Shown: positions 3,238 through 25,720 of the stretch, piece by piece
Position numbering within the stretch: position 1 is the first letter of the stretch
How the letters are laid out: the number at the start of each line of letters is the position of its first letter
Virus record (IMG/VR): IMGVR_UViG_2740892488_000007
DNA length: 29,943 nucleotides
Strand: one strand, 5' to 3'
DNA from: a virus
Lineage: Duplodnaviria > Heunggongvirae > Uroviricota > Caudoviricetes
Notes under the pieces: generated by a model
What the model saw: the letters and a program-made list of their open reading frames with translations, nothing else
The model's database searches: none
Told to the model about the DNA's origin: nothing
Made by a program: the position numbers and the translations under genes

Positions 3238-3509
3238 GTATTCGTATTGAAATTGGCGAACGTTATGTCGTTACCAGTGACAGCTTTCAGTTTATTCTCC
3301 ACGAGAAAAAGAGAGCGGAAAGCGGTAAAAACGCCGGTCAGGAATGGCTGTCGGTGGTTGGTTATTACCCGAAATTAAGCCAGCTCGTTTCCGGCCTGAT
3401 GCATCACGATATTCTGACCGGAAGCGCAAAGTCTTTTGCTGATTTAAACGTGCAGGTTGAGCAACTCAGCAAGCGTTGTTCAGAGGCTTTTGGCTCATAT
3501 GGCCGTTAA
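3234..3509 (+). CDS. hypothetical early protein
   Basis: 91-aa ORF, ATG at 3234 with GGAG upstream; its 3' end overlaps the start of A. Confidence 0.5.
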   Translation: MSIRIEIGERYVVTSDSFQFILHEKKRAESGKNAGQEWLSVVGYYPKLSQLVSGLMHHDILTGSAKSFADLNVQVEQLSKRCSEAFGSYGR

Positions 3510-5775
3510 AGCCTCCGGGCGTTTTGTCCCTCCGTCAGCATTTGCCGCAGGCACCGGTAAGGCGTTTACCGGTGCTTATGCATGGAACGCGCCACGCGAG
3601 GCTGTCGGGCGCGAAAGACCCCTTACACGTGACGAGATGCGTCAGGTGCAAGGGGTTTTATCCACGATTAACCGCCTGCCTTACTTTTTGCGCTCGCTGT
3701 TTACTTCACGCTATGACTACATCCGGCGCAATAAAAGCCCGGTGCACGGGTTTTATTTTCTCACATCCACTTTTCAGCGTCGTTTATGGCCGCGCATTGA
3801 GCGTGTGAATCAGCGCCATGAAATGAACACCGACGCGTCGTTGCTGTTTCTGGCAGAGCGTGGCCATTATGCGCGTCTGCCGGGGATGAATGACAAGGAG
3901 CTGAAAAAGTTTGCCGCCCGTATCTCATCGCAGCTTTTCATGATGTATGAGGAACTCTGCGATGCCTGGGTGGATGCGCATGGCGAAAAAGAATCGCTGT
4001 TTACGGATGAGGCGCAGGCTCACCTCTATGGTCATGTTGCTGGTGCTGCACGTGCTTTCAATATTTCCCCTCTCTACTGGAAAAAATACCGTAAAGGGCA
4101 GATGACCACGAGGCAGGCATATTCTGCCATTGCCCGTCTGTTTAACGATGAGTGGTGGACCCATCAGCTTAAAGGCCAGCGTATGCGCTGGCATGAGGCG
4201 TTACTGATTGCTGTCGGGGAGGTCAATAAAGACCGTTCTCCTTATGCCAGTAAACATGCCATTCGTGATGTGCGTGCACGCCGCCAGGCAAATCTGGAAT
4301 TTCTTAAATCGTGTGATCTCGAAAACAGGGAAACCGGCGAGCGCATCGACCTTATCAGTAAGGTGATGGGCAGTATTTCTAATCCTGAAATTCGCCGGAT
4401 GGAGCTGATGAACACCATTGCCGGTATTGAGCGTTACGCCGCAGCAGAGGGTGATGTGGGGATGTTTATCACGCTGACCGCGCCGTCAAAGTATCACCCG
4501 ACACGTCAGGTCAGAAAAGGCGAAAGTAAAACCGTCCAGCTAAATCACGGCTGGAACGATGAGGCATTTAATCCAAAGGATGCGCAGCGTTATCTCTGCC
4601 GTATCTGGAGCCTGATGCGCACGGCATTCAAGGATAATGATTTACAGGTCTACGGTTTGCGTGTCGTCGAGCCACACCACGACGGAACGCCGCACTGGCA
4701 TATGATGCTTTTTTGTAATCCGCGCCAGCGTAACCAGATTATCGAAATCATGCGTCGCTATGCGCTCAAAGAGGATGGCGACGAAAGAGGAGCCGCGCGA
4801 AACCGTTTTCAGGCAAAACACCTTAACCGGGGCGGTGCTGCGGGGTATATCGCGAAATACATCTCAAAAAACATCGACGGCTATGCACTGGATGGTCAGC
4901 TCGATAACGATACCGGCAGGCCGCTGAAAGACACTGCTGCGGCTGTTACCGCATGGGCGTCAACGTGGCGCATCCCGCAATTTAAAACGGTTGGTCTGCC
5001 GACAATGGGGGCTTACCGTGAACTACGCAAATTGCCGCGCGGCGTCAGCATTGCTGATGAGTTTGACGAGCGCGTCGAGGCTGCACGCGCCGCCGCAGAC
5101 AGTGGTGATTTTGCGTTGTATATCAGCGCGCAGGGTGGGGCAAATGTCCCGCGCGATTGTCAGACTGTCAGGGTCGCCCGTAGCCCGTCGGATGACGTTA
5201 ACGAGTACGAGGAAGAGGTCGAGAGGGTGGTCGGCATTTACGCGCCGCATCTCGGCGCGCGTCATATTCATATCACCAGAACGACGGACTGGCGCATTGT
5301 GCCGAAAGTTCCGGTCGTTGAGCCTTTGACTTTAAAAAGCGGCATCGCCGCGCCTCGGAGTCCTGTCAATAACTGTGGAAAGCTCACCGGTGGTGATACT
5401 TCGTTACCGGCTCCCACACCTTCTGAGCACGCCGCAGCAGTGCTTAATCTGGTTGATGACGATGTTATCGAATGGAATGACCCGGAGGTCGTGAGGGCGC
5501 TCAGGGGCGCATTAAAACACGACCGGAGAACGCCAAACCGTCAGCAAAGAAACGGAAGCCCGTTAAAACCGCATGAAATTGCACCATCGGCCAGACTGAC
5601 CCGGTCGGAACGATTGCAAATTACCCGTATCCGCGTTGATCTCGCTCAGAACGGTATCAGGCCGCAACGATGGGAGCTTGAGGCGCTGGCGCGTGGCGCG
5701 ACCGTAAATTATGACGGGAAACCTTTCACTTATCAGGTCGCTGATGATTGGCCGGGATTTTTGTTACCCATTTGA
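3499..5775 (+). CDS. A: rolling-circle replication initiator (P2 gpA-like)
   Basis: Long ORF (758 aa from ATG at 3499; the track ORF opens at 3457). HUH-type motif PHWHMMLF and tyrosine pair GYIAKYISK. Length near the 761 aa of P2 A. Confidence 0.9.
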   Translation: MAVKASGRFVPPSAFAAGTGKAFTGAYAWNAPREAVGRERPLTRDEMRQVQGVLSTINRLPYFLRSLFTSRYDYIRRNKSPVHGFYFLTSTFQRRLWPRIERVNQRHEMNTDASLLFLAERGHYARLPGMNDKELKKFAARISSQLFMMYEELCDAWVDAHGEKESLFTDEAQAHLYGHVAGAARAFNISPLYWKKYRKGQMTTRQAYSAIARLFNDEWWTHQLKGQRMRWHEALLIAVGEVNKDRSPYASKHAIRDVRARRQANLEFLKSCDLENRETGERIDLISKVMGSISNPEIRRMELMNTIAGIERYAAAEGDVGMFITLTAPSKYHPTRQVRKGESKTVQLNHGWNDEAFNPKDAQRYLCRIWSLMRTAFKDNDLQVYGLRVVEPHHDGTPHWHMMLFCNPRQRNQIIEIMRRYALKEDGDERGAARNRFQAKHLNRGGAAGYIAKYISKNIDGYALDGQLDNDTGRPLKDTAAAVTAWASTWRIPQFKTVGLPTMGAYRELRKLPRGVSIADEFDERVEAARAAADSGDFALYISAQGGANVPRDCQTVRVARSPSDDVNEYEEEVERVVGIYAPHLGARHIHITRTTDWRIVPKVPVVEPLTLKSGIAAPRSPVNNCGKLTGGDTSLPAPTPSEHAAAVLNLVDDDVIEWNDPEVVRALRGALKHDRRTPNRQQRNGSPLKPHEIAPSARLTRSERLQITRIRVDLAQNGIRPQRWELEALARGATVNYDGKPFTYQVADDWPGFLLPI

Positions 5776-6035
5776 GTAAAAATACAGCGTGATTTTATAT
5801 GTCTTTGAATGGATTATGCGAAGCACCTCTAAGGTAGATGAGGAGCAATAGCGTGTTGAATCAGAAGGCTAAATTGTATTGAATCGTTAGCATGTAATTG
5901 AAGGCAGCTATTTGATTCGAGTCATAAAAGAGCATCTATTTCGGTTAATAAAACCATTGCGAGTGACTTTATGTCGAAGCATAATTCATCTCGAGCGAAG
6001 TCTTGCTAGTCTTTCATCGGATTGATGACGGGCGC

Positions 6036-6067
6036 AAAAAAAACCACCCTGGCAGGTGGTTTTTTTT
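6036..6067. terminator. bidirectional rho-independent terminator
   Basis: A8 (6036-6043), stem CCACC (6044-6048), loop CTGGCA, stem GGTGG (6055-6059), T8 (6060-6067). Works in both orientations; lies after gene A on + and 12 nt after the stop of the 37-aa ORF on -. Confidence 0.65.
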
Positions 6068-6079
6068 GTTTGAAGCATA

Positions 6080-6193: not shown

Positions 6194-6848
6194 ATCGCCT
6201 CCTGTAAGCAGAGGGCAATTTCCGCCGATATATGCGCTTCTAAGGCGGAGTGACTATTGAGCGAAGTCTTGCCCTGAAATAATGCTCTGTTTAAACGCAA
6301 AGTGATCTGGCATATCACCGAACAGAGGACCTGAACAACACAACATATAGTATGTCGTTGTTTCTGGTTGCATTTTATGTTGTGTAATACTGGTTTTGCA
6401 TCAAGGATGTTTGAGCTTTTTTTGATATAGCTCAAAGTAAAAAGCAGAGACTACGGATGATAAGGTCTTGAAAGCAATGTAAATTTTTTAAAGTTGTGAG
6501 TGGCTAGAAATGCACAGTTTCAATATGGCGGATTTAAACAAGTAATTAAAAATAGCGACATAAATTCCAATAAAATCATTAAGTTGCGTTTTCTGTGGAA
6601 ACTTCGGTGACTCTGAAATTTTCTTTTAGTGTCGCTGAGGTTTAACAACGCGCTGCGCAAGTAGTTAGTGTTTTTTTAACTCAATATTCTGATTTATAAG
6701 GTTTTTTATAAATCGTGGACTGGTTGCGCGTATTCATCTCGTGTTATCAGCAAAGATAAGCTCTATATGCAGAACGGAATGCATATATGATGTCGAAAAT
6801 GTTATGGGAAAACGTGGATTAGTGTTATAGTAATGGCTGAAAAACAGC

Positions 6849-6915: not shown

Positions 6916-7401
6916 ATGAGCTATGCAGCTAAAAAACTGCTTGACCGCTATTGGGATCGCCGACTACCTGTCGATCCGTTTAAGCTTGCTAAAGCGTGGG
7001 GTGCTCGTGTTGAAGCACTTGAGGAATCGGCTTATAACAACGATGGGTTAAGCGGTCTGGCTGTCATCAAAAAGGGTGTCCATAGGATTTATTTTGATTC
7101 TAGTGAACATTCTAATCGTCAACGTTTTACTGTTGCACACGAGTTAGGTCATCATGTGCTGGGGCATACCCAGGACGGAGAGTACCATCGGGATAATGTC
7201 GGGAATTATTCAACAGGTGCTCGTGATTACCGTGAGGTTGAAGCAAACAAGTTTGCTGCTGAGTTGTTAATGCCTGAGTCTGCTATACGTCAATTGGTAT
7301 CCAGAGAAGGTATTGATAGCACTTTGAGATTAGCAAGCATCTTTAATGTATCAGAAGCCGCTATGCATTGGCGCTTAAAGAGCTTAGGAATGGCTTATTA
7401 A
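6916..7401 (+). CDS. ImmA/IrrE-family (HEXXH) zinc metallopeptidase, standalone
   Basis: 161-aa ORF with AGGAGG RBS and ATG at 6916. HEXXH motif HELGHHVLGH and downstream EVEANKFAAELLMPE, the signature of ImmA/IrrE-type peptidases. No HTH domain in this ORF. Confidence 0.7.
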   Translation: MSYAAKKLLDRYWDRRLPVDPFKLAKAWGARVEALEESAYNNDGLSGLAVIKKGVHRIYFDSSEHSNRQRFTVAHELGHHVLGHTQDGEYHRDNVGNYSTGARDYREVEANKFAAELLMPESAIRQLVSREGIDSTLRLASIFNVSEAAMHWRLKSLGMAY

Positions 7402-7430
7402 TTAGCCTTTAACTTTTAACCTGTTTAAAA

Positions 7431-7467
7431 TCACCTTTACGTTTGTACATGTAAGGGTGATTTTTTT
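7431..7467 (+). terminator. terminator-like hairpin / attenuator directly upstream of the membrane-protein gene
   Basis: Stem TCACCTTTA (7431-7439) pairs with TAAGGGTGA (7452-7460), with one G-U wobble; 12-nt loop; then T7 (7461-7467) running straight into the ATG at 7468. The only SD-like sequence (AAGGGTGA) is inside the 3' arm of the stem. Confidence 0.5.
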
Positions 7468-8067
7468 ATGGCTGATATTGATTTATCTGGACAGTCCCCA
7501 GAGCAAGGAACCACTCCTAAGGGCGATTCAGATCCTGATATCCTTATAAGGCGAGATAGACGGGATGGTATAGAGCGTAGAAGTATGCGATTAGTGCTCT
7601 CTGCCGTTGTGCTTTGTTTTGCTTGTACATTTCTATGGCAGGGGCTTAACTTTGCTTTGGCTGTTGGAAATGGCTTGCTGGAAGCGAAAAGCAGTATTGC
7701 CGCAGCGATAACACAAAAAGTAGATACACAAACTTGTGTTTCAGCAGAAAAATGTTCTGCTTTATCTTCGGATCCGAAGATGGCTGATGAGAGGATAACA
7801 CCATCTTCAGACACTAATAAAGTTAGAAAATCTATTTCTGGTTTATCCACCGATTGGTTATCGGCCAGTTCTCTAATAGCTATTGTTGCATTCATCCTTG
7901 GTGTGGGTTTAACTTTGCTTTTGACTCTTCTTAAATCAGCATTTCAACACCCGACAGATAAAGACTTTAGAACAAAGTCGACATCTAATACTATTGAGTT
8001 GGCCACGCCAATCAGTGAATTAATAATTGGTGTTCTGAATATAATTAAAGACAAACTATCTAAGTAA
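7468..8067 (+). CDS. small membrane protein with two predicted transmembrane helices
   Basis: 199-aa ORF. Charged N-terminus, hydrophobic segment LVLSAVVLCFACTFLWQGLNFALAV, polar middle, second hydrophobic segment LIAIVAFILGVGLTLLLTLL. AT-rich codon usage unlike the phage backbone. The start may instead be the internal Met at 7585. Confidence 0.55.
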   Translation: MADIDLSGQSPEQGTTPKGDSDPDILIRRDRRDGIERRSMRLVLSAVVLCFACTFLWQGLNFALAVGNGLLEAKSSIAAAITQKVDTQTCVSAEKCSALSSDPKMADERITPSSDTNKVRKSISGLSTDWLSASSLIAIVAFILGVGLTLLLTLLKSAFQHPTDKDFRTKSTSNTIELATPISELIIGVLNIIKDKLSK

Positions 8068-8109
8068 AGCATTAGTTGTGATTTTTTATTGGTTTTAGTG
8101 ATAATACAT

Positions 8110-8142
8110 CTCCAGTACTTATTGTTACTGGAGAGTATTTTT
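8110..8142 (+). terminator. rho-independent terminator after the peptidase / membrane-protein pair
   Basis: Perfect 8-bp stem CTCCAGTA (8110-8117) / TACTGGAG (8126-8133), 8-nt loop, followed by AGTATTTTT. Confidence 0.5.
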
Positions 8143-8351
8143 AGTCGTTTTATATTTTTAATGTTAGTGAATGATATTCACGAGAGTTCACGTTCGATGT
8201 GATGTAATCGGGGGCGTTAACACCAAGAATCGCAACGAGTAATCGGCAAATTAAAGCCTGCATTTGTTGTAATATGTCATCTCCATATTGATAATTGTTA
8301 ATAGTGGTAAAGCCAAGTGGTTGACCATGAAACATAGCTTCATGAAAGTTT

Positions 8352-9092
8352 TCATTGCGGATGTTTGTAATGTTTTTTTTTGCCTGTAACCCATGATGGT
8401 CGTGGTATTCCATAAGTTTTGCAGATCCACTTCAAGCGCCTGGAGTGATTTAGAGTCTTTTCTGTACACTTGTTCTTTTCTGCCCATGTTAAAGCAAAGC
8501 AACTATCCAGTGCCATATAAAGATACTGGAATTTTTCGAAGCTAAGGTATTGTGGGTTTTGGGATAAAAATAGTGCATGCACTATTGCTGCTATATTTAT
8601 TGGTGCGTGTTTGGTTTTTGTCTCGCTAGACATGTATTTGAGTGCTAATTCTATAACCTCTTTTTCAGAGCACTTGACCAGAATAAAGTCAGTTAATTTG
8701 CTGGGTTTTATTGGGGTTGCGTCTAAAAAACCGGCATCAGTAGTTGTTAATCTTATCCCTTTGAAAAAAGACAGACACCACACAGCAAAATTGAGAGTTT
8801 CTAGTGAAGATGTATTTTTTAATTTTAGTGAGTGTGTTTTGGGTAAGCCAAATACTCGTTGGCTAAAAGGCATTGTGGATATGCCTCCATTGAGGTTATA
8901 TACTTCTTGGTTTCCTGGGTATATCCAACCGTTAATAACATTTCTGTGATTGTTTATAAGATTTGTTTTTTCCGCTAGACCGGGTAAAGTAAGTAAAGAA
9001 AAATCATCAGTTTCAACGTTAACTTCTACTGGATAGTATCCAAACTCAGCTTCAATATCATTGGATTGCTGTTCGTCAACTTTACCTTGCAT
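8352..9092 (-). CDS. hypothetical protein (hotspot cargo); frame may continue to 8150 through an A9 tract
   Basis: 246-aa ORF with ATG at 9092-9090 and GGAG RBS. No motif I recognise. AT-rich. The C-terminus ...GKKKHYKHPQ runs through A9 on the coding strand (T9 at 8373-8381 on +); with A8 the frame would continue for 73 more codons to the stop at 8150. Confidence 0.5.
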   Translation of the reverse strand: MQGKVDEQQSNDIEAEFGYYPVEVNVETDDFSLLTLPGLAEKTNLINNHRNVINGWIYPGNQEVYNLNGGISTMPFSQRVFGLPKTHSLKLKNTSSLETLNFAVWCLSFFKGIRLTTTDAGFLDATPIKPSKLTDFILVKCSEKEVIELALKYMSSETKTKHAPINIAAIVHALFLSQNPQYLSFEKFQYLYMALDSCFALTWAEKNKCTEKTLNHSRRLKWICKTYGIPRPSWVTGKKKHYKHPQ

Positions 9093-9330
9093 ACATTGCT
9101 CCGGTCAAAAATAGGCTCGATAATTCTCGTAAGCCTATCATGTTCGCAAAGTATCCATACCTGTGGATTTTGTAAATTTAAGTTGATTTGTCATTAAATA
9201 AGCCGTTGCATGCAACAAGTGAATGTTTTTGCATGCGTCGGGGATGTCCGTTCAGGCTGCGTGCGGTCAGGACTGGTGCGGATCCATAGTATCTATGCAA
9301 CTGCATTAAAACCGCCCCATGAAGCGGGCG

Positions 9331-9520: not shown

Positions 9521-10556
9521 TCAGCCGTTGTCAGTGTCCAGTGAGTAGTTTTTAAAGCGGATGACCTCCTGACCGAGCCAGCCGTTTATCTCGCGGATCC
9601 TGTCCTGTAGCGGGATAAGCTCATTGCGGACAAAGACCTTTGCCACTTTCTCAATATCACCCAGCGACCCGACGTTCTCCGGCTTGCCGCCCATCAACTG
9701 AAAGGGGATGCGGTGCGCGTCCAGCAGGTCAGCGGCGCTGGCTTTTTTTGATATTAAAAAATCGTCCTTCGTTGCCACTTCACTGAGCGGGATAATTTTG
9801 ATGCCGTCGGCTTTCCCCTGTGGGGCATAGAGAAACAGATTTTTAAAGTTGTTGCGGCCTTTCGACTTCACCATGTTTTCGCGGAGCATTTCGATATCGT
9901 TGCGATCCTGCACGGCATCGGTGACGTACATGATGTATCCGGCATGAGCACCGTTTTCGTAATACTTGCGGCGGAACAGCGTGGCTGATTCATTCAGCCA
10001 GGCAGAGTTAAGGGCGCTGAGATATTCCGGCAGGCCGTACAGCTCCTGATTAATATCCGGCTCCAGCAGGTGAAACACGGAACCGGGCGCGAAGGCTGTC
10101 GGTTCGTTGAAGGACGGCACCCACCAGTAAACATCCTCCTCCACGCCACGGCGGGTATATTTTGCCGGTGAGGTTTCCAGTCTGATGACCTTACCGGTGG
10201 TGCTGTAACGCTTTTCCAGAAACGCATTACCGAACACCAGAAAATCCAGCACAAAGCGGCTGAAATCCTGCTGGGACAGCCACGGATGCGGGATAAATGT
10301 CGAGGCCAGAATATTACGTTTGACGTAAATCGGTGAGCTGTGATGCACGGCAGCACGCAGGCTTTTTGCCAGACCAGTAAAGCTGACCGGTGGTTCATAC
10401 CATCTGCCGTTACTGATGCACTCGACGTAATCCAGAATGTCACGGCGGTCGAGTACCGGCACCGGCTCACCAAAGGTGAATGCTTCCATTTTCGGGGCGC
10501 TGGCGGTCATTTTTTTTTGCCGCAGGTTGCTGTGTTTTCCCTTTTTTCTTGCTCAT
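9521..10556 (-). CDS. Q: portal protein (P2 gpQ-like); N-terminal 15 codons out of frame at a T9 run
   Basis: 329-aa body ORF (9521-10510). An upstream ATG at 10556-10554 overlaps the P stop and has a GGAG RBS; it reads MSKKKGKTQQPAAKK and then falls out of frame at T9 (10510-10518). With T8 the protein would be 344 aa, the length I recall for P2 Q. Confidence 0.8.
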
Positions 10557-12501: not shown

Positions 12502-13357
12502 ATGGCAAAAAAAAGTCTCAAAATTCTTTCGTATCGGCGTTGAGGGTGACACCTGTGACGGGCGTGTCATCAGTGCGCAGGATATTCAGGAAATGGCCGA
12601 AACCTTTGACCCGCGTGTCTATGGTTGCCGCATTAACCTGGAACATCTGCGCGGCATCCTGCCTGACGGCATCTTTAAACGTTATGGCGATGTGGTCGAA
12701 CTGAAGGCCGAAAAGATTGACGATGATTCGGCGCTGAAAGGCAAATGGGCGCTGTTTGCGAAAATCACCCCGACCGATGACCTTATCGCGATGAACAAGG
12801 CCGCGCAGAAGGTCTACACCTCAATGGAAATTCAGCCGAACTTTGCCAACACCGGCAAATGTTATCTGGTGGGGCTGGCCGTCACCGATGACCCGGCAAG
12901 CCTCGGCACGGAATACCTGGAATTCTGCCGCACGGCAAAACACAACCCCCTGAACCGCTTCAAATTAAGCCCTGAAAACCTGATTTCAGTGGCAACGCCC
13001 GTTGAGCTGGAATTTGAAGACCTGCCTGAAACCGTGTTCACCGCCCTGACCGAAAAGGTGAAATCCATTTTTGGCCGCAAACAGGCCAGCGATGACGCCC
13101 GTCTGAATGACGTGCATGAAGCGGTGACCGCTGTTGCTGAACATGTGCAGGAAAAACTGAGCGCCACTGAGCAGCGCCTCGCTGAGATGGAAACCGCCTT
13201 TTCCGCACTTAAGCAGGAGGTGACTGACAGGGCGGATGAAACCAGCCAGGCATTCACCCGCCTGAAAAACAGTCTCGACCACACCGAAAGTCTGACCCAG
13301 CAGCGCCGCAGCAAGGCCACCGGCGGTGGCGGTGACGCCCTGATGACGAACTGCTGA
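12502..13357 (+). CDS. O: capsid scaffold protein (P2 gpO-like); start region out of frame at an A8 run
   Basis: ATG at 12502 reads MAKK and then hits A8 (12507-12514) and stops after 13 codons. Removing one A gives a continuous 284-aa protein, the P2 O length. The body ORF is 12593-13357. Confidence 0.8.
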
Positions 13358-21197: not shown

Positions 21198-23817
21198 ATG
21201 AGCACGAAATTTAAAACCGTTATCACTACTGCCGGAGCCGCGAAGCTGGCAGCCGCTACTGTTCCCGGCGGGAAAAAAGTAAACCTGTCTGCAATGGCTG
21301 TGGGTGACGGTAATGGCCAATTGCCGGTGCCGGATGCCGGTCAGACGAAACTGGTGCATGAAGTCTGGCGTCACGCTCTGAATAAAGTCAGTGTGGATAA
21401 CAAGAATAAAAACTATATCGTGGCTGAACTGGTTGTTCCGCCAGAAGTGGGCGGCTTCTGGATGCGTGAGCTTGGTCTGTATGATGATGCCGGAACACTG
21501 ATTGCGGTATCCAACATGGCAGAAAGCTATAAGCCAGAACTGGCTGAAGGCTCCGGACGTGCGCAGACCTGCCGCATGGTTATTATTCTCAGTAACGTGG
21601 CGTCCGTTGAGCTGAGTATTGATGCCAGCACAGTGATGGCGACGCAGGATTACGTCGATGACAAAATCGCAGAGCATGAGCAGTCCCGCCGCCATCCTGA
21701 CGCCACACTGACAGAAAAAGGTTTTACTCAGTTAAGCAGTGCAACAAACAGCACCAGTGAGTCATTGGCGGCAACGCCAAAAGCGGTCAAGGCAGCAAAT
21801 GACAACGCAAATTCACGTCTGGCGAAAAATCAGAATGGTGCAGATATCCAGAATAAATCAGCTTTTCTGGAAAATGTTGGCGTTACCAGCCTGACGTTTA
21901 TGAAAAACAATGGCGAAATGCCGCTTGATGCTGATCTGAATACATTTGGTCCTGTTAAGGCTTATTCAGGTATCTGGTCTAAAGCAACATCCACCAACGC
22001 AACACTGGAGAAAAATTTCCCTGAAGACGGTGCAGTCGGTGTGCTTGAGGTATTCAATGGCGGTAATTTTGCAGGAATGCAGCGTTATACCACCAGAACA
22101 GGCAATGTTTATATGCGCAACCTTTCTGGCACCTGGAATGGCTCAGACGGTCCGTGGAGCTACTGGCGTCAGATTCAGTCAGCAACACGCCCCCTGAGTA
22201 CAACCATTGACCTGAACACGCTCGGAGGCGCAGAGCATCTTGGCTTATGGCGAAACAGTAGTGGCTCTATCGCTTCATTTGACCGCAACTATCCGGAAGA
22301 AGGAAGTTATGGTCAGGGACTCCTTGAAGTTCTTGAAGGTGGTGGGTACTCACGCATGCAACGCTACACGACCCGCCGTGGGGATGTATATGTTCGCTGC
22401 CTTTCTGCTACATGGAATGCAGAGAATCCACAGTGGGAACCGTGGTTAAGAGTCGGTCATCAGTCAGAGAGTCGTTATTACGACGGGGATTTGAATGATG
22501 TGACTTCACCAGGTATTTACAGCGTTACAGGTAAAGCGACCAACGGTCCAATACTGGACGGAAACGGCGTGACAGTCCTCGGGATTCTGGAAGTGTTGAG
22601 GCGCTTTGATGGTGTTAACGTATGGCAGCGTTATACAACTGCCGGAACAGGTGCAACCCTTAAAGGTCGCACGTTTGAGCGCGTCTATACCGGCAGCTCG
22701 TGGAGCGAATGGCGGGAAGTCTACACCTCGTATTCACTTCCCCTGAATCTGGGTATCGGCGGTGCTGTGGCAAAGCTCACCAGCATGGACTGGCAGACCT
22801 ACGACTTTGTGCCGGGCAGTCTGATAACCGTTCGGCTTGATAACATGACCAACATTCCCGACGGTATGGACTGGGGCGTCATTGATGGCAACCTGATAAA
22901 CATCGCAGTGGGTCCGAGTGATGATTCCGGTACGGGGCGCTCAATGCATGTATGGCGCAGCACCGTAAGTAAAGCGAACTACCGCTTTTTTTATGGTGCG
23001 TATTTCAGGAAATCCGGGAAGTCGCACGATCACCACAAGACGTGTGCCAATCATTGACGAAGCCCAGACATGGGCGGCGAAACAAACCTTCAGCGCCGGT
23101 CTTTCAGGCGAACTGTCCGGCAATGCTGCTACAGCAACAAAGCTGAAAACGGCAAGGACAATTAACGGCGTAAAATTTGACGGCTCGGCAAATATTGAAG
23201 CGTTTCCGCCAGGTGTTCCGCTGCCGTGGCCATCAGATACACCACCTGCAGGCTATGCAATTATGCAGGGGCAGACGTTTGATAAGGCTGCATATCCGAA
23301 ACTGGCTATTGCCTATCCTTCTGGTGTTATTCCAGATATGCGCGGCTGGACAATCAAGGGCAAACCCGCCAGTGGGCGTGCCGTATTGTCACAGGAACAG
23401 GACGGGATTAAATCGCATACTCACAGCGCCAGTGCGTCAAATACGGATTTAGGGACGAAAACGACCAGTTCATTTGATTACGGCACGAAGACAGTCAGTA
23501 CGTTTAACTACGGAACAAAAACCACTAATACCACAGGTAACCATACACATACCATTTACAGAGGGAATGCCAATACTAATGGTGAAACCGGTAAAACAGG
23601 CTTTGACAACCCATCGTTTAATGGCACATCAGGAGCTGCCGGGAATCATGCCCACACGGTAGATATTGGCGCACATAATCATACGGTTGGTATTGGTGCA
23701 CATTCACACACGGTTGCTATTGGCTCACACGGGCACTCTATTACCGTTAATGCTACAGGTAATACCGAAAACACCGTCAAAAACATCGCATTTAACTATA
23801 TTGTGAGGCTTGCATAA
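21198..23817 (+). CDS. H: tail fibre protein H; frame broken near a T7 run
   Basis: ORF 21198-23057 (619 aa) and ORF 22993-23817 (274 aa) overlap in different frames. The second frame opens only after a stop at 22966-22968, so the shift lies between 22969 and 23057; T7 at 22986-22992 is the likely site. Fusion gives about 872 aa. The C-terminal part is His-rich with HxH repeats. Confidence 0.75.
23656..23736 (+). repeat. 3 x 27-bp tandem repeat encoding TV(D/G/A)IG(A/S)HxH units in the tail-fibre tip
   Basis: Units at 23656-23682, 23683-23709 and 23710-23736 (ACGGTAGATATTGGCGCACATAATCAT / ACGGTTGGTATTGGTGCACATTCACAC / ACGGTTGCTATTGGCTCACACGGGCAC). Confidence 0.7.
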
Positions 23818-24396
23818 TGGCTTTCAGAATGAGTGCAGAAGCACAAACTATCCACGTATTTAATTTACTTGATGGAACCAATGAATTTATTGGGGAAAGT
23901 GACGCATATATCCCACCGTACACTGGCCTGCCTGCAAACAGTACAGATATTGCACCACCTGATATTCCAGCTGGTTATGCAGCCGTTTTCAATGCAGACG
24001 AAATGAAATGGGAACTGATGGAAGACCATCGCGGAAAGACTGTCTACGAAACGAAAACGGGAGCAGCCATTTATATTTCTGAACTTGGCGTATTACCTCC
24101 AGACGTGACAGCCATTTCCCCGGATGGGGATTATCAGAAATGGAACGGCAATGCGTGGGTGAATGATGAGAATGCAGAGCGTGATGCGCTTGTCAGAGCG
24201 GCGGAGTCTCAGAAGAAAGAGCAGATTGCATATGCAGGTGAAATCATTGCCACGCTGCAGGATGCTGTCGATTTAGATATGGCTACCGAGGAAGAAAAGT
24301 TAAGTCTGACACACTGGAAAAAAATACCGTGTGTTACTGAATCGCGTTCAGCCGGAAAATGCCCCGGATATTGAATGGCCGGAACTACCGCAATAA
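23817..24396 (+). CDS. G: tail fibre assembly protein (Tfa, gpG-like); C-terminus out of frame at an A7 run
   Basis: As written the ORF ends at 24374 with ...[20 protein letters not shown]. With A6 instead of A7 (24318-24324) the end reads ...[26 protein letters not shown], the conserved Tfa C-terminal pattern as I recall it, stopping at 24394-24396. Confidence 0.75.
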
Positions 24397-24528
24397 ACAC
24401 AGGCGGGCTGATTGCCCGCCTTTTCTTTACCGGTGGTTGTGCTGTTGATTAGCCAACCGGGACAAATAGCCTGACATCTCCGGCACAACTGAAAATACCA
24501 CTCACCCATTAACCACGGAGTTAAACGG

Positions 24529-25720
24529 ATGAGTGATTATCATCACGGCGTGCAGGTGCTGGAGATTAACGACGGCACCCGCGTCATTTCCACCGTATCA
24601 ACCGCCATTGTCGGCATGGTCTGCACAGCCAGCGATGCGGATGCGGAAACCTTCCCCCTCAATAAACCGGTGCTGATTACCAATGTGCAGAGCGCAATTG
24701 CAAAGGCCGGTAAAAAAAGGCACGCTGGCGGCGTCGTTGCAGGCCATCGCTGACCAGTCCAAACCGGTCACCGTTGTCGTGCGTGTTGAAGACGGCACAG
24801 GCGACGACGAAGAAACGAAACTCGCGCAGACCGTTTCCAATATCATCGGCACCACCGACGAAAACGGTCAGTACACCGGACTGAAAGCCCTGATGGGGGC
24901 TGAGTCGGTTACCGGCGTTAAACCGCGCATTCTTGGTGTGCCGGGGCTGGACACCAAAGAGGTTGCCGTCGCACTGGCATCGGTATGCCAGGAACTGAAT
25001 GCATTCGGGTATATCAGCGCATGGGGCTGTAAAACCATTTCCGAGGTGAAAGCCTACCGCCAGAATTTCAGCCAGCGTGAGCTGATGGTTATCTGGCCGG
25101 ATTTCCTCGCATGGGATACGGTCACCAGTACCACCGCCACCGCGTATGCCACCGCCCGTGCGCTGGGGCTGCGCGCTAAAATCGACCAGGAGCAGGGCTG
25201 GCATAAAACGCTGTCCAATGTCGGGGTAAACGGTGTTACCGGCATCAGTGCATCTGTATTCTGGGATTTGCAGAAGTCTGGCACTGATGCTGACCTGCTG
25301 AACGAGGCAGGCGTCACAACGCTGGTTCGCCGCGACGGTTTCCGTTTCTGGGGTAACCGTACCTGCTCCGATGACCCACTGTTCCTCTTTGAAAGCTACA
25401 CACGCACTGCGCAGGTACTGGCCGACACGATGGCTGAGGCGCACATGTGGGCTATTGATAAGCCCATCACCGCAACGCTGATTCGCGACATCATTGACGG
25501 CATCAATGCCAAATTCCGCGAACTGAAAAACAACGGTTATATCGTGGATGGCACATGCTGGTTCAGTGAAGAATCCAACGATGCGGAAACCCTCAAGGCC
25601 GGAAAACTGTATATCGACTACGACTATACCCCGGTGCCTCCCCTCGAAAACCTGACCCTGCGCCAGCGTATTACTTCAAGATACCTGGCAAGTCTGGTCA
25701 CCTCGGTTAACAGCAATTAA
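24529..25720 (+). CDS. FI: tail sheath protein FI; frame broken at an A7 run
   Basis: ORFs 24529-24753 and 24683-25720 overlap in different frames. A7 at 24712-24718; with A6 the reading is ...[21 protein letters not shown]... giving a continuous 396-aa protein, the P2 FI length. Confidence 0.8.

Follow-up and report, generated by a model that had tools for sequence, protein, structure and literature searches.

A probable homopolymer-length error splits a putative HEPN-like cargo gene in the hotspot of a P2-like prophage

Gene content and hotspot setting

The stretch of DNA analysed here (hereafter the window) comprises the 29,943 nucleotides of IMG/VR virus record IMGVR_UViG_2740892488_000007 and is a P2-like (Peduovirus) prophage. 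Its left side carries the integrase, C/cox, B and replication gene A (gpA, 3457–5775, plus strand), and its right side carries portal gene Q (9521–10510, minus strand), terminase P, scaffold O, capsid N and the tail genes. The gene under study lies between gpA and gpQ in a cos-proximal position, and annotated relatives share this layout. Phage P2 has tin and old at the same position, and the region is a hotspot for anti-phage cargo (Rousset et al. 2022, PMC9122126). The G+C content of the hotspot region in the window is 36–41%, compared with 55–60% in the structural genes. The gene belongs to the accessory cargo that P2-like prophages carry in this hotspot between genes A and Q.

Two other genes occupy the hotspot, both on the plus strand and both intact. 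One encodes an ImmA/IrrE (Peptidase_M78) protein (6916–7401; PADLOC capP at 1e-30, RmrA-like) and the other a predicted membrane protein of 199 aa (7468–8067; phrog_8096). The pair (6916–8067) converges on the gene under study, has no evident HTH partner and may form a two-gene module in its own right within the hotspot, with a role in defence or regulation. Rousset et al. 2022 (PMC9122126) list the arrangement as “Peptidase_M78 + hypothetical + hypothetical” in their Table S5A. The Rst_3HP system (“three hypothetical proteins”) of the same authors is an unlikely identity for the three hotspot genes, one of which is clearly a Peptidase_M78 gene. Further to the left, 3' of gpA, an inverted repeat at 6030–6075 (A-run-CCACC...GGTGG-T-run) resembles a bidirectional intrinsic terminator; both of its flanking runs are one base longer in the window than in relatives.

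The split gene and its A tract

Read directly from the sequence, a T9 run at 8373–8381 on the plus strand is an A9 run on the coding minus strand (8381–8373), with the minus-strand context GTT ACA GGC AAAAAAAAA CAT TAC, in which the nine A's occupy 8381–8373. The gene is divided at this tract. Its 5' part is a 246-aa open reading frame (ORF) in the ORF list (8352–9092, minus strand) that ends in WVTGKKKHYKHPQ (KKKHYKHPQ) followed by a premature TGA at 8354–8352, seven codons past GKK. Its 3' part lies in another frame (8150–8374, minus strand), encodes N240 to I313 followed by a TAA at 8152–8150, and has a C-terminus identical to that of RefSeq protein WP_001161722.1. An 87-aa ORF (8150–8413, minus strand) contains this 3' part as its tail, and no stop interrupts the frame between the tract and the TAA at 8152–8150. 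These readings agree with the preliminary description of the locus, which had reported an A9 tract at 8373–8381 with a stop seven codons on at 8352 and, for a tract of eight, a frame open to 8150 over 73 codons. That count is right to within one codon: the alternative frame adds 73 codons after the tract and 74 when the tract-overlapping AAC is included.

Deletion of a single A joins the two parts into one 942-nt coding sequence (CDS) for a 313-aa protein, and both parts are then identical to WP_001161722.1. The tract as read is A9 and its likely true length is A8 (8373–8381, minus strand), in which case it would supply codons K238 and K239 and the first two bases of N240 (GGC AAA AAA AAC). 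Residues 1–239 of the 246-aa ORF represent the true N-terminal part of the protein according to the ORF list and the AlphaFold2 model described below, that is, a beta-rich domain at about 13–140 and the first HEPN-like helices. Beyond the tract, codons R245-N246-E-N-F-H250-E251 form an RNxxxHE motif (8339–8359, minus strand; coordinates from the sequence) whose lettered residues fall in invariant alignment columns. The TGA that ends the A9 frame shares bases with the codons for R245 and N246, and the 246-aa product consequently lacks the motif.

The intact gene is already known. It is represented by RefSeq WP_001161722.1 and in Table S5A of Rousset et al., and a relative is present in GenBank AM157369; all are named only as “hypothetical”. 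WP_001161722.1 occurs in P2-like prophages of E. coli and Salmonella, and the window protein is identical to it once one A is removed. ORF313 of P2-EC67 (AM157369, CAJ43160.1) has about 79% DNA identity and occupies the same gpA–gpQ position. The window differs from both in having A9 where they have A8, which splits its CDS into ORFs of 246 and 87 aa. A literature search for WP_001161722, ORF313 and P2-EC67 returned nothing relevant and no report of an anti-phage test of the gene, and PMC13586616 makes no mention of frameshifts or homopolymers at this hotspot gene.

Protein family and predicted function

The gene had been described as an orphan. A protein search with the 313-aa query instead recovers 603 homologues, nearly all of 305–330 aa with 95–100% query coverage, from Gammaproteobacteria that include Enterobacteriaceae, Aeromonas, Acinetobacter, Pseudomonas, Stenotrophomonas and others. 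In an alignment of 30 sequences with 45–79% identity, the segment after the tract is the best conserved part, and R245, N246, H250, E251, F254, P258, L259, G260, F261, R283, L289 and Y296 are invariant within it. The downstream frame is conserved far beyond chance because it constitutes the most conserved stretch of a family of about 600 proteins. The 73-codon extension is thus present throughout the family. Homologues that end at the equivalent of position 8352, which would have spoken against a longer protein, were looked for and the roughly 600 homologues proved to be full length. The conserved end probably has a catalytic role.

The HEPN signature is Rx4-6H in which the arginine is followed by a polar residue (N, D or H) (PMC3710099). 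The family conforms to this pattern, with R245, N246 and H250 present in 30/30 homologues. An AlphaFold2 model built on the 30-sequence alignment (mean pLDDT 81, pTM 0.83) has a beta-rich N-terminal domain at about 13–140 and a helical C-terminal domain at 143–300; model confidence is low at residues 248–258, around the motif, and HEPN structures are often non-helical around Rx4-6H (PMC3710099). The figures listed beside the model for comparison structures are 7.3 for Csm6, 7.2 for AbiA, 7.0 for 4nqf, 6.7 for the sacsin HEPN, 6.5 and 6.2 for HEPN-MNT toxins, 5.0 for AbiV and 4.7 for HepS. An assignment of the C-terminal helical domain, which carries the RNxxxH motif, as HEPN-like is only moderately supported.

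Profile and structure searches give this assignment no support. The 313-aa protein and the 30 homologues have no Pfam match at E up to 1 and no match in NCBIfam or PADLOC; a match to a curated HEPN family profile, such as Pfam HEPN_Apea, is therefore among those that did not appear, and a Foldseek search of the model against the PDB gave nothing significant. In these respects the protein differs from HepS of Gifsy-1, AbiV, the AbiA HEPN domain and the Csm6 HEPN. The only Apea-like HEPN mention is in the UniRef name of one homologue (P0063), and the full-length PHROGs family, phrog_5937, is of unknown function. Weak family-profile matches of 40 residues to the N-terminus of ribonucleotide reductase R2 among PDB sequences (E about 0.01) are taken as chance.

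The best inference is that the protein is a stand-alone HEPN-like defence or abortive-infection RNase with a logic comparable to that of HepS, a prophage-encoded single-protein HEPN system (PMC13043305). By analogy with HepS-type single-protein systems, the N-terminal domain would sense infection. The neighbourhoods of distant homologues are consistent with a defence role for the family. Homologues with 45–46% identity occur in P. aeruginosa (L037–L039) in islands that adjoin Gabija-like OLD-TOPRIM and UvrD genes with DUF932/ParB_N, and in Acinetobacter seifertii (L040) beside a DUF4238 gene; DUF4238 is a validated P2-hotspot defence gene (PMC9122126). An uncharacterised HEPN-like family of about 600 members in defence hotspots is a reasonable anti-phage candidate, independent of the finding on the A tract.

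Tract length in relatives

Region 8100–9150 of the window was compared by megablast with 5,426 complete E. coli genomes, among which 47 genomes match at ≥99% identity. The matches listed all span 1050 bases against the 1051-base query. An 81-base probe with A9, centred on the tract, matches 47/47 of these genomes over 80 bases with one gap and none of the 47 at 100%. Alignment places the gap inside the tract, with A8 in E. coli 1916D18, Salmonella phage MET_P1_103_31 and ORF313 of P2-EC67, in all of which a single 942-nt CDS for 313 aa is annotated (WP_001161722.1, WFG40936.1 and CAJ43160.1, respectively). Phage OQ383618 (L004) has A8 and one CDS. Apart from the tract difference, the window gene is identical to the A8 allele in at least 22 complete genomes.

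The same tract length prevails beyond this allele. A degenerate pattern scan of IMG/VR found A8 in 23/23 contigs, which represent at least five flank alleles and in which the frame is open for about 240 codons before the tract and for 76–77 after it. An exact-pattern scan for the tract in a set of genome contigs gave 0 loci and is uninformative. A8 is kept in at least five enterobacterial alleles with 74–100% identity, and 71 of 72 complete E. coli genomes have A8, with one off-length. The proposal that the full protein is the longer form is therefore strongly supported, since all clean relatives combine A8 with one CDS for a protein of about 313 aa and the extension is conserved family-wide; the length of about 310 aa given for it was slightly short of the true 313 aa.

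Homopolymer differences across the window

Phage OQ383618 and the E. coli S65EC prophage (L005, NZ_CP036245.1) served as references for an alignment of the whole window. Nearly all single-base indels in well-aligned sequence are an extra base in an A/T run of at least six. The proportion of runs with one extra base rises with length, from 7–8 of 36–37 runs of six, through 3 of 7 runs of seven (plus one run with a missing base), to the single run of eight; among about 700 A/T runs of 3–5 there are 0–1 such cases, and G/C runs are essentially unaffected. Substitutions are rare by comparison: over its first 9.3 kb, the window has 4 substitutions and 5 indels relative to OQ383618.

Besides the tract, the window has about 14 differences of one extra base relative to near-identical prophages, all in A/T runs of at least six. 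The discrepant runs, one of which is a base shorter, lie at 6043, 6067, 6899, 9383, 9499, 9749/9755, 10512–10518, 12514, 18496, 20738, 22992, 24324 and 24718. Those at 6043, 6067, 6899, 9383 and 9499 are non-coding. Six essential genes (Q, O, S, I, H and FI) are broken in the window and intact in near-identical prophages. A +1/−1 pair at 9749/9755 and a change at 10512–10518 leave portal gpQ with 329 aa compared with 344; an extra base at 12514 leaves scaffold gpO with 254 aa compared with 284; tail fibre H is split at 22992, sheath FI is hit at 24718, and gpS and gpI are also frameshifted. A/T runs of at least eight number seven in the window compared with 2.4 expected, a count reached in 3 of 100 shuffles, and this enrichment is itself partly due to over-calling.

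The reference sequences are not free of such features. The S65EC prophage is itself annotated with a frameshifted replication endonuclease (gpA, locus 23372–25647) and a frameshifted tail fibre assembly gene. It also has C3/G3 runs at places where C4/G4 is present in the window, L004, L006 and L035 (the last two introduced below), which implies that run-length differences occur in references as well.

Origin of the ninth A

The favoured explanation, to which we assign a probability of roughly 85%, is that the ninth A is a homopolymer-length error of sequencing or assembly and that the true sequence has A8 and an intact 313-aa gene, with the HEPN-like cargo interpretation included. The A9 is most likely an over-call because about 14 other extra bases all fall in A/T runs of at least six, six of them breaking essential phage genes. 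The earlier suggestion that the ninth A fits a one-extra-base pattern seen in the phage genes is thus borne out. The resemblance to homopolymer errors of draft assemblies is close: indels in the window occur only in A/T runs of at least six, become more frequent with length and are almost all +1, coding and non-coding sequences are both hit, and assemblies of near-identical DNA carry different sets. The tract departs from ordinary draft errors in one respect, which is that it also has rare genuine-looking alleles in clean assemblies. Under the error explanation, the gene would be one uninterrupted 942-nt CDS for a 313-aa protein, split by one spurious base, and the “two alternative ends” of the preliminary description would be those of one split gene and not of two biological isoforms. 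Taken literally, the A9 frame would give a 246-aa product that lacks the putative catalytic motif and would be a null allele.

A mutator (mismatch-repair-deficient) strain is rejected as the source of the indels, which outnumber substitutions, alter about 20–40% of runs of 6–7 and form different sets in assemblies of the same DNA; changes in 20–40% of runs with near-zero substitutions correspond to no real mutational process.

A second explanation, which we consider unlikely, is that A9 is a real heritable +1 mutation produced by replication slippage, so that the hotspot gene would be a pseudogene with a 246-aa product devoid of RNxxxH. Such a mutation could reflect neutral decay, or a costly or toxic effector could have been selected against. 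A public protein collection does contain the exact 246-aa product (HGJ2839357.1), on five contigs, which at first sight favours a heritable allele. Of these five, L006 (GCA_011957465.1) and L007 (DRR191002) were examined, and A9 is present in both. L006 also has extra homopolymer bases at window positions 6423 and 6677, with gpM split, and L007 has extra homopolymer bases at window positions 6677 and 6936. That each has its own, different set of extra bases indicates platform error and not shared descent. The window, L006 and L007 thus all hold many other, non-shared homopolymer +1 differences, which counts against a genuine mutation.

Stronger evidence that the A8 run mutates in nature comes from cleaner sequences. 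Contigs L035 and L036 (E. coli GCA_030346215.1 and ERR2987469) have A9 and are 100% identical over 11 kb; over 16 kb compared with the S65EC prophage, they have zero other A/T homopolymer indels, and none of their phage genes is broken. Their A9 alleles look genuine on this comparison. A sister allele with 74–79% identity, which sits in 186-like prophages, varies in a similar way. L008, L009 and E. coli N56 (complete genome; L041, NZ_CM165908.1, 827–1570) carry it with A9, L010 carries it with A7 (280 aa), and L011 and a further 24 complete genomes carry it with A8. RefSeq treats the A9 copy in N56 as a normal CDS of 247 aa, and the A9 sister allele of N56, L008 and L009 is probably a genuine frameshifted allele missed by pseudogene flagging. 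Likewise, phrog_34836 is a family of 111 positions that matches residues 238–313 only, and it probably derives from split gene copies as their C-terminal ORF. The tract is a real indel hotspot because genuine-looking A9 and A7 alleles occur in these cleaner assemblies; judged from the alleles compared, its mutation is of low frequency, with 1/72 complete E. coli genomes off-length.

These alleles establish precedent for a real A9, and the particulars of the window weigh against it nonetheless. Mis-calling is most to be expected at the longest run, the window gene matches the A8 allele of complete genomes everywhere except at the tract, and 47/47 clean carriers of this allele have A8, which sets the prior for a real A9 at a few percent at most.

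Slippage and phase variation

Because its A9 tract seemed long enough for slippage, the preliminary description had allowed for a protein of variable length in vivo. This is not supported for a true tract of A8, which is accompanied by no stimulatory RNA structure and is not conserved beyond the enterobacterial subgroup. Two functional readings of the tract nevertheless merit comparison with the error explanation.

The first is that the A8 run upstream of RNxxxH could be a contingency on/off switch for a costly HEPN-type abortive-infection effector of P2- and 186-like prophages. If so, A9 and A7 alleles, possibly including that of the window, would represent “off” settings that can be reversed, as opposed to errors or dead ends. 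We regard this as very improbable. Off-length variants do recur across several lineages, but with one off-length copy in 72 complete E. coli genomes the tract is far less variable than true contingency loci. Frequent tract polymorphism, the mark of a phase-variable locus, was sought among the E. coli genomes and viral contigs, and A8 was found in 71/72 and 23/23 of them, respectively.

The second, broader reading, likewise very improbable, is that the tract is a functional switch of some kind, whether by programmed transcriptional slippage or a −1 frameshift on A_AAA_AAC that would yield products of both 313 and 246 aa, or as a phase-variable toxic-effector locus. Programmed slippage at A-runs is exemplified by A_AAA_AAG in E. 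coli dnaX and by transcriptional slippage in IS elements and at A9 in Thermus dnaX. Under the slippery heptamer rule, the in-frame A_AAA_AAC has the appropriate form, and the outcome of a −1 shift, or of an extra A in the mRNA, would be precisely the 246-aa product. As in dnaX and IS genes, an A-run lies inside the CDS and a one-base shift leads to a shorter product; the maintenance of A8 in at least five enterobacterial alleles at 74–100% identity could also be taken to favour function. The differences are more telling. Bacterial transcriptional slippage is generally efficient only on runs of about nine or more, and the tract here is A8. Stimulatory RNA structure downstream of the tract does not exceed that of shuffled controls (z = −0.54, −0.81 and +0.67), and the nearest and sole hairpin begins 27 nt beyond the tract, compared with the 5–9 nt of a stimulatory structure. 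Conservation of the tract does not extend across the family, in that KK(N) occurs only in the enterobacterial subgroup and distant homologues have GRTC, EKKSE and similar sequences in its place; codon usage by itself would lead one to expect AAA AAA at Lys-Lys. The shifted-frame tail is just seven codons, and the truncated product lacks the conserved motif. Nothing supports programmed slippage, and the features of the tract appear to reflect only ordinary homopolymer mutability.

Implications for annotation of the window

With the ninth A treated as a spurious base, the window should be annotated with one 313-aa CDS in place of a 246-aa gene and an 87-aa ORF. About 14 other A/T runs need the same correction ahead of any gene-level conclusion in the window. 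A second nine-base run lies at 10510–10518 (minus strand), at the start of the portal ORF. Relatives have ATTGTTTTT at this position, and the T9 of the window amounts to a G>T change plus an extra T; the run may represent a real SNP that created T8 and was later over-called.
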